This document shows positions 4,604-63,317 of a stretch of DNA of 64,000 nt, piece by piece. The position numbers and the translations under genes are program-made. The stretch's first letter is position 1; each line of letters opens with the position of its first letter. Under the pieces are notes generated by a model that worked only from the letters and a program-made list of their open reading frames with translations, made no database searches and was not told the DNA's origin. Source of the stretch: Octopus vulgaris (taxonomy: Eukaryota); NCBI GenBank assembly GCA_951406725.2, contig OX597825.1, positions 43,586,001 through 43,650,000 on the forward strand, read 5' to 3'.

Positions 4604-6860
4604 GGTCACGGCCATGAATCAGATAGACATAGGAAGGACCTTATTGCTTTCTTTCAAAGGATGGGCTTACGGGTTACAATAGATGCTAACCTGAATAGTG
4701 TAGATTTTTTAGACGTAAATTTTAATGTAAGGTCGGATAGATTTAAACCTTTCCGTAAGCCCAATGAAAAGCTATCGTATATTAGCAAAGATTCGAACCA
4801 TCCACCAGTTATCCTTAGGAACTTAGTCAGCAATGTAGGTAGAAGAATATCTTCAATTTCTTCGGACGGGGCAGCATTCCATAATGCTGCACCTTATTAC
4901 CATAGCGCATTAAAGAATAGTGGATTCTCTGAGAAGATCCAGTACAACCAGATTAATGCTGGTAATAATGCTGCACGAAGAACTAGGACCAGGAAAGTTT
5001 TGTGGTTCAACCCGGCTTTCAATTTGGCCGTAAAGACTAATATAGGTAAGCAATTTTTGAGATTAGTCTCTAAACATTTTAAGCAGGGTTATAAGTTCTA
5101 TAAGATATTTAATAGAAGAACCCTGAAGGTTAGCTATTCTTGTTGCAGAAATTTCACCTCTTACATTAGCCAGCATAATAGGAATCTAATTGAGATTAGA
5201 CATGGTGCCGAGCCCATTAAGAAATGCAATTTCAAAAACGAAAACTCCTGTCCGTTGGAAGGGAAATGTCTAGTGAAAGGAGTAGTTTATAGAGCCAAGG
5301 TGCAAGTGGAAGGCTCATCGGAATACAAGACATACACAGGGGCTTCAGAAAATTCATTTAAAACACGATTTTATTCACATAAAAATTCATTTAAATACCC
5401 AGAGAATAGGAAGAGGACCAGCCTAGCAAAATATGTCTGGGAACTAAAAGAAAAGGAAACCCCACCTTTCAACGTGACATGGAGCATTCTGGACAGAGCG
5501 ACACCTTACAGGCATGGAGCACACAGAAATAATTTTAAATGCAAGCTTTGCCTATTAGAAAAAATGTACATTTTATTCAAAGACAATAATTCTTTGAATC
5601 AAAGAAGTGAGCTAATGAACTTATGTAGACACGCAACCAAATTTAAAATGTCAAATATAAATATACCATATGGATAGAGTATATATTTTGTATTTTTGAT
5701 TTTTGAAATTTTGATTTTGACTCTTGAACTAGTATGTAAACGCGACGATAGATTTGTTTCGCGCTATGCAGATTTCATTCCGTATAGCAAAGTCTTATAT
5801 TTCTACATATACATTAGGAAAAACCTTCGGCTTTGTTTATTTCATGTTATTGTATAGGATTACCTTGATTTTTAATTTATAGATGATCCAAAATAGGGTG
5901 TTATATTTTATATGTCTTTCGTATATTTTTTCATTATTGCACTCACCTTTTTTTAAAAAGCAATGTTGTCAAAAATTAGAATTTTGATATAAGTATGTGT
6001 ATAGCCATGGATATGTATTTGTAAGCATGCGTATCTGTATATGTGTAAGTGAGCGTATGTTTGTGCTTAAGCACACACATACACGACTGTATGTGTATGT
6101 ATCCATTCGAACTTGTGTATTTGTATACTTGTCTCCATATATGTCAATAACGCGGTTACACAGATTGTTACATAATTTTTCTTATTTCGTTTTTTCCACC
6201 ACCCCTCCTTTTTCTTTTTTCCTCCCCCCTTTTTCGTTCCTTTTTCTCTCTCTTCCTTTCTTTCGTTTTTTTCCTCTAACTGATACTGATACAACTTTAC
6301 GTCCCCCTTACTTAAGCTTTACTCAGTAAATGAGAAACGCTACATCGATGATTTTAACTTACGTGCGAAATAGAATGCGTGCATATTTGTATGCATGCAT
6401 TTGTGTGTATATTTTATATTTATATTTATACGTTTGTATATGTATGGCGTTTGCACGCATCCTTCTGTGTATGTTGATATATATATGTACACTTTAATAT
6501 AAATATGTATTGCAGTGTAATATTTATAATTTATAATAATTTCTATGCATTAATTATATTTTCTTCATTAACGTCAATATGTATTTTATTCAATGTAAGG
6601 TTTTTTCCTCGAATTTTTATAATTTTTTATATATATATATATACATATATTTTTGAGCTTTTTTTGTTTATCGCTCGAAGATTGACCGTTATTTCTAAAG
6701 GGCCAATCAAACAAGTCCATTTTTTTTAATGATGTAGCGTTTGTAAGAGTCTAGGTTGAATTGATATATCGGTTCCATTCTAGCAAAAACTGTCTGATGA
6801 ACGGCAACGAGAAACTCAGAGTAACAGATTTCGTTGAATTTTCTGCTGCTTTAAATAAAG
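4604..6860 (+). mobile_element. Penelope-like element B: 5'-truncated, with open RT thumb plus GIY-YIG endonuclease, long 3' UTR and terminal HHR
   Basis: VDFLDVNFN, SNHPP, WFNPAFN..VKTNIG, KIFNRRTLKVSYSC, CPLEGKC..VVYRA...YTG..FKTRFYSH, TSLAKYVWELK, CKLCLLEK, LNQRSE...CRH; stop at 5677. Confidence 0.92.
6790..6827 (+). ncRNA. Minimal type I hammerhead ribozyme with canonical core
   Basis: ctgt-CTGATGA-a-cg-gcaa-cg-a-GAAA-ctc-a-gag-TA-acag: stem I ctgt/acag, 2-bp stem II, stem III ctc/gag, cleavage triplet GUA. Confidence 0.8.
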
Positions 6861-6921
6861 TATATATATATATATATATATATATATATACTATACAATA
6901 TGTTACATTACTCGGTAGTCA

Positions 6922-6984
6922 AGATAAAACTCTGAGTTTCAGATGCCGAATTGGAAATCCACAACACCATCTCTTCGGTTATCT
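6922..6984 (-). ncRNA. Hammerhead ribozyme variant (CCGAAGA core), copy 1
   Basis: Reverse complement of the 8756-8818 motif, with one substitution in stem II. Confidence 0.68.
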
Positions 6985-8755
6985 GGCTATTTGAAAACGT
7001 TATGAAAAAATACCGTTAAAAATGAAGGGAAATTACTCTGTTATAACTCTGCTTTGCCTGCGTACTTATACATCGCTCGCATTTTTCGTCATAAAAATTA
7101 TATAAAAATACATAAAAATATATAAAAATATATAAAAATATATAAAATCTTCTTGGGACATAACACAGAAAGCATGTTCTATCCGTTTTCTTTAGGGGAC
7201 CAAAAACGTAACAGAAATTTAGTCACATGTGGGCATGATCCGAAAAGCTCTGTCCTTGTATTTAGACATGTAGTAGGGTCTAAGCTGCTTTTCCAGATAA
7301 GCCATCTCTCCATGTCGCATAAACCGCACCTTCCGCTGCCGTTAGTATAGGGCTTACATCTGGCCAAAATCTTCCATTGTATGTTATAATCGACACCTTT
7401 ATCTCTTAAAGACCAAATATGATTGGATAATTGTGTCGCTTTTCTTTTGTTCCAGTGCCTAAAGCTCAAAGTGTGGTTATTGAACCTGGCCTTGAAATTA
7501 CCCTCTGTCAGGCCCACGTATTTCTTCGTCGAAACGGTGTCTTTAGTGGTTATAGAGTTTACGGTAGCTTCATATATGATGGTCTTGGACATGCAAGCTC
7601 CATTTAGCGGGCACAATTCTTTATTCCTGCATGAACAGCTGTTTTCTTCTTGTGTTTTTTGTATGTTATGATTGATTATGTTTTTAAAATTGGTAGTTGA
7701 ACTAAAACTAATTTTTAAATTGTGTCTATTGAAGAGTTTCCTATAAGCATGGTTAACTGGAAAATGTCTATCTATCAGTGCTATGAAATATTTACCTATA
7801 TTGAAGGCCACCTCGGGTGAGTAAACCAGATGACCTTCCTATTTCTATTATTCCTTTTCCTTATTGTTGGGCTGGTGATAGGTGTATATTTTATTTTTTC
7901 GCTAAAACCACTATCTTTTAAAGCTTTATTATAAACTGGGGCAACGCTATTGAAGATGTCCTCATTAGATGAGAGGCTAGAAATCCTCTTACTAATATTT
8001 TTAACTAAATTTTTGAATACTTTAAAAATTAGTTTTAGTTCAACTACCAATTTTAAAAACATGATCAATCATAACATACAAAAAACACAAGAAGAAAACA
8101 GCTGTTCATGCAGGAATAAAGAATTGTGCCCGCTAAATGGAGCTTGCATGTCCAAGACCATCATATATGAAGCTACCGTAAACTCTATAACCACTAAAGA
8201 CACCGTTTCGACGAAGAAATACGTGGGCCTGACAGAGGGTAATTTCAAGGCCAAGTTCAATAACCACACTTTGAGCTTTAGGCACTGGAACAAAAGAAAA
8301 GCGACACAATTATCCAATCATATTTGGTCTTTAAGAGATAAAGGTGTCGATTATAACATACAATGGAAGATTTTGGCCAGATGTAAGCCCTATACTAACG
8401 GCAGCGGAAGGTGCGGTTTATGCGACATGGAGAGATGGCTTATCTGGAAAAGCAGCTTAGACCCTACCACATGTCTAAATACAAGGACAGAGCTTTTCGG
8501 ATCATGCCCACATGTGACTAAATTTCTGTTACGTTTTTGGTCCCCTAAAGAAAACGGATAGAACATGCTTTCTGTGTTATGTCCCAAGAAGATTTTATAT
8601 ATTTTTATATATTTTTATATATTTTTATGTATTTTTATATAATTTTTATGACGAAAAATGCGAGCGATGTATAAGTACGCAGGCAAAGCAGAGTTATAAC
8701 AGAGTAATTTCCCTTCATTTTTAACGGTATTTTTTCATAACGTTTTCAAATAGCC

Positions 8756-62017: not shown

Positions 62018-62069
62018 TGAGCCGACGAAAGAAATGTCGATTTGACTAATCTAGAAACGTACGTTCTCA
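62018..62069 (+). ncRNA. Hammerhead ribozyme, CCGACGA variant of the 61606 copy
   Basis: tgag-CCGACGA...GAAA-cgtacg-TT-ctca. Confidence 0.7.
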
Positions 62070-62446
62070 AATAACCTTTGCATTTGATTTTTTAATGTCT
62101 TTACCCCCATACTTTCGTGAGTTGAATTGAGAAAACACTATATGAATGAGATTTTCTTTAAGTATTAGAAATAGTTTTAAAAAAGTTTTTTTTAGCTGCT
62201 ATTTCTAATGAGTTCAGTATGTGGCAAAGTAATTTATTTTACTAAGCCCTTTTATATAATGTAATAATTTGAATTCGCCTTAAATGGTCCCTTTGCATAC
62301 TGAATACTTGGTGAAATTGATTAATAATTAATTAATTTTACCCTCAATTGTTGAAATTATATATATATATATATATGTGTGTGTGTGTGTGTGTGTATGT
62401 ATGTATGTATGTATGTATGTATGTATGTATGTATGTATGTATGTAT

Positions 62447-63317
62447 ATAATAAATGGATAAAATTTTTATTAATTAAGTTGATTAATTAATTAATCAATT
62501 AATTAATAATTTCACCAAGTAGATCGGTACGTTAAAATAACCTTTATAGGTAAAATTATACAAATATTTTATAATTATGAACAATTATAATTAGGGTTCA
62601 GCTAATTGCTTCACCACATACCAATTCAGAAATAAGAGTTAAAATTTCCTTTTCTACTACTATAAGAATCTCCATGACGGTAACATACTTTTTTACGGAG
62701 GCAAAGAGAAAAAACAATGAATCAACACGACCAGGATTAACTATATACGCGTTTCGAGATTAAAGTGATTTAAATTTCACTTACTTCTCTCTTCGGTATA
62801 GAATTTTTAATTATAAAATTTGAAAGTGCTAGAGTTAAATATGCACACGATCGAGCGACATCATGTAATAGATATCCAACCAACACTTCCAAAATTTACA
62901 GGGCCGAATGTGAATACACTATATAACCCCTATACCCACGTGTATGCTACGAGCAGTACCACAGAAAACTGCAGTATTCTATTATGGAGTAAATTATAAT
63001 TTTGAATTAATAATAAAAGGGTAAAATTTATTAATTTAATTAATTAATTAATTAATCAATTAATTAATAATTTCACCAAGTAGATCGGTACGTTAAAATA
63101 ACCTTTACAGGTAATATTATACAAATATTTTATAATTATAAACATAATTATAATTGTTGATTCATTGTTTTTCACTTTGCCTTCGTTAAAAAGTAAGTTA
63201 CCGTCATGGAGATTCTTATAGTAGTATAAAAGGAATTTTAACTCCTATTTCTAAATTCTGTATGTGGTGAAACAATTAGCTGAACCCTAATTATTTTTAT
63301 AATCATAAAATATTTGT
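62447..63317 (-). mobile_element. Non-coding HHR element E3: partial tandem of a 561-nt unit plus inverted arm
   Basis: ttcaccaagtagatcgg at 62511 and 63072; 63155-63317 is an inverted copy of 62560-62727. Confidence 0.82.
62741..62801 (-). ncRNA. Hammerhead ribozyme variant (CCGAAGA core)
   Basis: ctata-CCGAAGA-gaga..agtga...tcact..tctc-GAAA-cgcg-TA-tatag: palindromic ACGCGT stem III, cleavage triplet GUA. Confidence 0.8.

Follow-up and report, generated by a model that had tools for sequence, protein, structure and literature searches.

The window analysed here, a 64-kb stretch of the Octopus vulgaris genome (contig OX597825.1, positions 43,586,001 to 43,650,000 of assembly GCA_951406725.2, which comprises 2.8 Gb in 227 contigs), contains nine minimal type I hammerhead ribozyme motifs. 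The feature is real, non-random and of a known kind, adding further families to the hammerheads of Penelope-like elements (PLEs). The motifs most probably reside in the terminal repeats of PLEs and in likely non-autonomous units lacking an open reading frame (ORF), where they would be cleaved as dimers with the assistance of a protein; single, scattered copies are probably inactive. Nothing in this arrangement, which is itself known, points to a host function; the new points are modest, namely a large and young expansion of the Hydra clade of PLEs, fixed U4C and C3U cores, and sharp insertion ends at two sites. The identity proposed by an original prediction made from the letters of the window, PLE-associated minimal type I hammerheads with self-complementary stem III, is thus borne out. 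Comparisons with published systems, here and below, draw on portions of the cited sources.

The window is 36% GC and rich in microsatellites, and about half of it matches repeats within 1.2 Mb of retrieved genomic loci. A relaxed descriptor, which demands a CUGANGA, CCGANGA or UUGANGA core plus GAAA, a self-complementary stem III, U16.1 and at least four Watson-Crick pairs in stem I, returns 8 matches in the window, compared with 0.02 on average and never more than 1 across 100 local dinucleotide shuffles (0/100 reach 8 motifs), while a strict-core descriptor returns 3 compared with 0.02. Because the window itself served to tune the relaxed descriptor, the fair test comes from 60 other 10-kb stretches at arbitrary coordinates, in which it finds 12 matches (one with G17, which may be chance) versus 0-1 in each of 10 shuffles. 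The density of hits is therefore not matched by shuffled sequence, the comparison that the original prediction had put forward. That chance matches in AT-rich, repeat-rich DNA could explain the motifs has next to no probability. It might be read from the tuning of the descriptor and from an Rfam scan with no hammerhead family among the 150 matches listed of 205 (E up to 10), a list filled with microsatellite matches to microRNA models, but it is ruled out by the shuffle comparison together with the family searches. In the latter, the family of every motif has between 20 and 5,845 genome matches; these counts come from pattern searches, each is a lower bound, and each has 0 matches to the reversed-pattern control.

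The sampled stretches correspond to a rate of 1.28 hammerheads per 64 kb, which makes the window approximately 6 times denser than the sampled average, though with a descriptor tuned on it. Extrapolating arithmetically from 12 matches in 600 kb, roughly 30,000-100,000 motifs are estimated genome-wide. The large load that had been suspected is corroborated by a single canonical pattern (CUGA, counted for the class with an 8-nt stem III), with 17,675 matches versus 1,848 for its control.

The core stated for each of the nine sites was found at 9/9, although minus-strand sites had been given their low coordinate; their cores start at 6978, 50295, 61653 and 62796. The core boxes CUGANGA and GAAA, with U16.1 and H17, are exact at 6794, 29871 and 61653, whereas U4C cores occur at 6978, 8762, 62022 and 62796 and a C3U core at 12898. 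The site listed at 50259 on the minus strand has its CUGAUGA core but carries A at 16.1 and therefore fails the descriptor, the only one of the nine to do so, and the stem III of its family is not palindromic. In all eight motifs tested, stem I (4-6 bp) and the stem II hairpin fold. The motifs, which the original prediction put at about ten minimal hammerheads, are not all separate insertions: those at 6978 and 8762 are arms of one inverted insertion (829 nt at 100% complementarity) and those at 61653 and 62022 are arms of another (265 nt at 98%), so that nine motifs amount to seven insertions, which represent seven repeat families, A to G (Table 1).

Table 1. Hammerhead-bearing elements of the window and their hammerheads (window positions; the cleavage-site position N17 is predicted).
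Feature	Position	Strand	Description
Family B element	4608..6860	+	5'-truncated Hydra-clade PLE by motifs and architecture; 85-87% identical to the intact 727-aa copy in locus L237
Hammerhead B	6790..6827	+	Canonical CUGAUGA; stem I 4 bp; stem III ACUCAGAGU
Family A insertion	6891..8918	both	Inverted, 5'-truncated, Hydra-clade by motifs and architecture; within the TA run ending element B
Hammerhead A, minus arm	6922..6984	-	U4C core CCGAAGA from 6978; stem I 6 bp; stem III ACUCAGAGU
Hammerhead A, plus arm	8756..8818	+	Design as minus arm; core 8762, N17 at 8812
Family C element	12608..13530	+	Partial tandem, period ~460 nt, inverted 5' piece
Hammerhead C	12894..12962	+	C3U core UUGAAGA, G8 kept; stem III ACCAUGGU; GUC site, N17 at 12958
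Family D element	29091..30003	both	Decayed Hydra-like PLE; endonuclease remnant 29261-29569 plus inverted arm
Hammerhead D	29866..29951	+	Canonical core CUGAAGA; 59-nt stem II arm; GUC site, N17 at 29946
Family E element	50142..51279	-	Decayed PLE; CX4CxxC linker; GIY-YIG domain (Pfam E=1.2e-4)
Hammerhead E	50259..50299	-	Canonical core from 50295; A instead of U16.1 in window copy
Family F element	61453..62361	both	ORF-less tandem unit of 556-559 nt; window copy an inverted insertion with TA runs on either side
Hammerhead F, minus arm	61606..61657	-	Canonical CUGACGA from 61653; stem III ACGUACGU; GUU site
Hammerhead F, plus arm	62018..62069	+	Private U4C change
Family G element	62447..63317	-	Partial tandem ~560 nt; 34-nt block in common with F
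Hammerhead G	62741..62801	-	Stem I 5 bp; stem III ACGCGU; GUA site; private U4C

Families A and B are young Hydra-clade PLEs, an assignment made by motifs and architecture. The family A unit is a 2,580-nt tandem with an intact frame of 717 aa, stop to stop (locus L091), and the family B unit a 3,365-nt tandem with an intact frame of 727 aa (locus L237). In both, a single ORF encodes a reverse transcriptase (RT) with a C-terminal GIY-YIG endonuclease, and by eye both proteins show RWK, DKT in place of DKG, a CxCX5C linker, and CxxC plus CxH in the endonuclease; RWK, DKT and CxCX5C are the marks by which the Hydra clade is defined (PMC8557442). The two proteins are 45% identical to one another, and 1,005 relatives were found at E<=1e-30. 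Pattern searches yield 3,117 genome matches for A and 5,845 (up to 1 mismatch) for B, with a median pairwise identity around the motif of 97% and 98.5%, respectively. The hammerhead lies about 200 nt downstream of the ORF in A and about 1,100 nt downstream in B. The window copy of B retains the RT thumb and GIY-YIG frame to 5677, followed by a long 3' untranslated region (UTR); its terminal TA run lies 37 nt beyond the predicted cleavage site. The family A insertion is 97-98% identical to a tandem unit in locus L092, contains GIY-YIG frames at 7182-7838 (minus) and 8021-8558 (plus), and has a short end on its minus arm (+37) and a long end on its plus arm (about +105). The ribozymes differ: hammerhead B has a GUA site (predicted N17 at 6823) and a 2-bp stem II with a GCAA loop flanked by A.A, while hammerhead A has one unpaired U ahead of G12 and a GUU site (minus-arm N17 predicted at 6928).

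These families share with the published Hydra clade (Craig et al. 2021, PMC8557442) a short single ORF, the RWK, DKT and CxCX5C marks, a C-terminal GIY-YIG domain and TA targeting. The clade includes Hydra-1_Obim of Octopus bimaculoides, which also has a hammerhead, but A and B differ from it in hammerhead and family. Stem III reads actc-N-gagt in four listed families of the clade and exactly ACTCAGAGT in Penelope-3_HM (Hydra magnipapillata), and related actc-N-gagt forms occur in coral and sea cucumber Hydra elements (PMC8557442 File S2). The 4-bp stem I of Hydra-2_aMil is identical to that of family B, and N17 is U in 10/26 rows of the clade table. Unlike family A with its U4C core, 26/26 of these rows have CUGA, in a table derived from a canonical descriptor, and the 3,365-nt unit of family B exceeds the usual 3 kb of the clade. 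Two side observations concern these copies. Several A and B copies start about 5-10 nt upstream of stem I (loci L012, L018-L021, L024, L026, L102-L104, L112 and L114), a possible hot spot of 5' truncation, and the truncated family B copy of the window is joined directly to a remnant of a different PLE-type RT (3549-4600, plus).

Insertion ends, taken as the distance from the predicted cleavage site to the first TA run, cluster sharply. For family A, 16/30 fall at 30-44 nt and 11/30 at 104-107 nt (the others at 85, 117 and 139), and for family B 12/20 fall at 37 nt and 8/20 at 108-112 nt; a TA run is present within 140 nt of the site in 30/30 A loci and 20/20 B loci. Family F ends at 181-201 nt in 14/20 loci. 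Inverted pairs that are whole in 3-kb loci combine one short with one long arm in 7/7 cases for A and 2/2 for B, as does the family A insertion of the window. Copies thus run past the cleavage site by 37 or about 105 nt, so the template of these insertions was likely uncut or religated RNA. Within the window, insertions abut through TA runs, A lying in the tail of B and G beside F.

In the proposed mechanism, the RT-endonuclease would nick (TA)n and start reverse transcription from either of two points, which lie 37 or 104-108 nt past the cleavage site. Reverse transcription would then pass the uncut or religated hammerhead, so that even the shortest insertion carries one, and an inverted partner copy begun at the other start site would double the motif count. 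TA targeting would stack insertions side by side, which would account for the local hammerhead density. The hammerheads would cut as dimers only, aided by the element protein, on tandem element transcripts. The anole Poseidon element PAc (Frangieh et al. 2024, PMC11167929) offers a close parallel: it likewise has two internal RT start sites past the hammerhead, tied to an optional 'tail', and an AT-rich target, and its hammerhead cleaved only with protein. However, it belongs to a different clade, its tail is 30-40 nt rather than about 70 nt as in A and B, and its start sites lie inside the ORF, whereas those of family A lie in the 5' UTR.

Modelled folds favour dimers, in that 0/8 motifs are predicted to form the monomeric three-helix hammerhead, whereas self-duplexes of stem III are predicted at -4.6 to -11.2 kcal/mol. 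When two copies join as a double hammerhead, each stem I is formed by the 5' strand from one copy and the 3' strand from its partner. Stem III is self-complementary in 6/7 families, E being the exception. The original prediction held that different palindromes could give family-specific dimer pairing; this does not survive, as A and B have ACUCAGAGU in common, which is also present in Penelope-3_HM, while stems I pair over 0-2 bp between families versus 4-6 bp within them, and over 0 bp between A and B. A shared stem III without cross-pairing of stem I rules out the palindrome as a family code, and stems I and III would have to act jointly to give whatever family specificity exists. In published assays, a single minimal hammerhead showed no cleavage and dimers showed low cleavage (PMC4209133).

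These properties also bear on the proposal that the load is relevant to the host, cutting pre-mRNA from introns and pairing through family-specific palindromes. The extrapolated number of motifs and the canonical core of the window copies at 6794, 29871 and 61653 (also 50295, with A16.1) are in its favour, and the under-representation of Xenopus retrozymes in introns would fit some cost (bioRxiv 10.64898/2026.07.22.740005). Nevertheless, this proposal is very improbable. No host exon was recognised among the window ORFs of at least 90 aa, which are transposon remnants or low-complexity sequence (assessed by eye, with 12/117 scanned against Pfam). Single minimal hammerheads are reported inactive, as noted above, and the unpaired stems I of A and B argue against the pairing it supposes. 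Furthermore, 4/9 motifs lie within long inverted arms likely to pair in read-through RNA, where each transcript of an inverted pair would hold a single sense copy, enclosed in a long predicted duplex. Contigs of presumed-RNA runs cover the family A unit in 4/4 runs, which for a family of thousands of copies is no evidence of expression, cleavage or circularity. The unique stretch 31900-38150 (6.3 kb) is almost uncovered by contigs of 4 partly different runs, which is no proof against a host gene.

Core variants recur as master sequences of families. Family A has CCGA in 99/100 matches listed (part of contig 1), and family C has U3 with G8 kept in about 89/100 matches listed (counted by eye). 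Genome-wide, in the 8-nt stem III class, CCGA gives 7,067 matches versus 1,870 for its control and UUGA 5,456 versus 3,489; CCGA also occurs in 4/12 descriptor matches from the 60 sampled stretches. In families F and G, by contrast, U4C is private: the window copy of G is the sole CCGA (19/20 genome matches have CUGA), F has 0 CCGA among the first 100 listed of 319, and its inverted partner in the window is canonical. The original prediction had taken recurrence of U4C in three unrelated families as an argument against random decay. That U4C is not mere decay holds for family A and for the genome-wide CCGA excess, but not for F and G, where it was ruled out as a sign of selection. U4C is therefore a recurring master sequence, on grounds other than those originally given; the altered core is likely weaker yet tolerated, and would have been passed on by the master copies of several families. 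A plant viroid hammerhead with the same core change (in Perreault et al. 2011, PMC3088659) has reduced activity in vitro, sufficient in vivo for infectivity; it is a single variant, whereas here U4C belongs to the master sequence of families that number thousands of copies.

Two further families carry U4C outside the window. One, with 2,797 matches and stem III ACAGCUGU (loci L217-L231), contains CCGA and CUGA subfamilies, with approximately 42 CCGA, 40 CTGA, 13 CCAA and 5 other cores per 100 listed (by eye) and a PLE protein match at 1/15 loci; the excess of CCAA fits CpG decay from an ancestral CCGA. The other is a young retrozyme-like U4C family, an ORF-less 360-bp tandem with a CCGA core and stem III ACCAUGGU, in common with family C, found in locus L235 (C1:31008500-31014500) and at C1:27695239-27697070. 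Its array comprises 9 minus and 3 plus copies, 99.8% identical, around an inverted junction, with TA runs at both its short and its long ends. The literature covered, which did not include Lunse et al. 2017, by its title the likeliest place, yielded no report of PLE families with fixed U4C or of hammerhead loads in cephalopods.

The role of hammerheads in endonuclease-bearing PLEs has been described as unclear (PMC8557442), and several points weigh against cleavage as a working part of the cycle proposed here. In the anole element, hammerhead (catalytic) mutants were not impaired in insertion in vitro, and no RNA-seq ends were seen at the cleavage site (PMC11167929); 8/9 Xenopus retrozyme dimers were uncleaved in vitro (bioRxiv 10.64898/2026.07.22.740005); and cleavage in the octopus genome is a prediction from sequence and folding. 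Relaxed catalysis would fit the spread of family A, which carries U4C together with a GUU site and has an unpaired U ahead of G12, and that of family C, in which C3U is uncompensated. In addition, an autonomous partner for C, F and G was not found with 8 query proteins from this genome. The fold might on these grounds be a passenger or a structural signal, with cleavage unneeded for transposition and core variants drifting to fixation. Every copy examined spans an intact cleavage site, U4C is fixed in A and C3U in C, CCGA looks ancestral in the 2,797-match subfamilies, and Naiad PLEs proliferate without canonical hammerheads (PMC8557442). Such a passenger role is unlikely, given that GA-N-GA, GAAA, U16.1, stem I and the self-complementary stem III persist in families that are unrelated to one another, and from cnidarians to molluscs. 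The common variants are also conservative, U4C being active enough for viroid infectivity (PMC3088659), and fixed letters in the search patterns hide families with other core changes.

A related and tentative possibility is that several spreading PLE or retrozyme families independently fixed weakened cores, slower cleavage being selected in the element because reverse transcription starts downstream and must cross the cleavage site. The cases would be U4C in family A, in the 360-bp tandem family and in the 2,797-match subfamilies, and uncompensated C3U in family C. If true, weakened-core families would form a natural series for testing the purpose of the PLE hammerhead. Families A and B already offer a direct comparison, being young Hydra families that both encode intact proteins and have sharp RT starts and a shared stem III, but contrasting ribozymes (canonical in B, U4C in A). 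Moreover, canonical-core searches undercount, since U4C adds about 5,200 above control to about 15,800 canonical motifs in the 8-nt stem III class, and such a search would miss all of family A.

Dimer-cleaving PLE hammerheads are otherwise a familiar arrangement. Those in the pseudo-long terminal repeats (pseudo-LTRs) of metazoan PLEs (Cervera and De la Pena 2014, PMC4209133) likewise have a short stem I, a palindromic stem III and an extra base beside stem II, and fall into many sequence families per genome, mostly as single truncated copies in the thousands, with pairs on opposite strands separated by 100-700 bp. The present load probably exceeds the 2,000-9,000 reported for schistosome, coelacanth and Xenopus, and the core variant described in that source is U3-A8, in contrast to the fixed U4C and uncompensated C3U families here.

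The remaining families combine decayed PLEs with ORF-less units. Family D (340 genome matches) has its predicted core, but the stem III ACATGT reported for 29871 is a 2-nt-deleted form: 20/20 retrieved family D copies read ACATGTGT, so that the window RNA would have ACAUGU against the family norm ACAUGUGU. A broken second hammerhead, missed earlier, lies on the inverted arm of this element (29147-29233, minus; core 29229, G12C). Family E (599 genome matches) would be a Neptune- or Nematis-like PLE, judged by its linker/endonuclease motif. Family C (113 genome matches) is likely a non-autonomous, retrozyme-like ORF-less unit, and a decayed second hammerhead at ~13360, plus (13350-13400), with its 3' half deleted, had also been overlooked. 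Window 12030-12610 holds a Hydra-type endonuclease remnant, 70% identical to family A, and after it a near-perfect hairpin at 12514-12599 whose arms of about 45 bp enclose a TA run. The PLE-like endonuclease remnant at 12030-12297 was not counted with family C, whose loci leave it uncovered.

Family F (319 genome matches) is an ORF-less, retrozyme-like, non-autonomous unit, found in locus L236 as an array of 5 plus 1 copies whose longest stop-free stretch is 59 aa; it shows inverted junctions and TA-run ends and has no sequence match to the A and B units beyond low-complexity bits. Family G (20 genome matches), with a stem II built on G10.1-C11.1, is likely of the same ORF-less, non-autonomous kind. 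In a search within 1.5 kb of the motif with the 8 query proteins, PLE protein matches were found at 18/30 loci for A, 10/20 for B, 3/20 for D, 4/20 for E and 1/20 for C, but at 0/20 for F and 0/20 for G, against a background of 6/60 random 10-kb stretches. As these queries found no autonomous partner for C, F and G, the PLE link of the three families rests on architecture. Non-LTR retrozymes (Cervera and de la Pena 2020, PMC7229834; Li et al. 2026, bioRxiv 10.64898/2026.07.22.740005), proposed as non-autonomous PLE derivatives, are likewise ORF-less tandem units of low GC with one type I hammerhead per unit, as in F, and their unit lengths of 51-972 bp include the 557 of F. Family F differs in that its hammerhead is minimal, not canonical, and in having inverted junctions of the PLE type and ends in TA runs, and it is known from DNA alone.

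Among the minor features of the window, the inverted arms at 6891-8849 and 61453-62222 would give 829-bp and 265-bp double-stranded RNA in a read-through transcript, a possible substrate for editing or small-RNA pathways. Other transposon remnants lie at 43427-46306 (minus), 55398-58900, 17047-18084 and 60673-60993. The kinds of remnant recognised include a long interspersed nuclear element (LINE) with endonuclease and RT frames, a further non-LTR fragment, a mariner-like helix-turn-helix, and an R2-like or RTE-like zf-RVT element with tandem repeats of about 700 nt.

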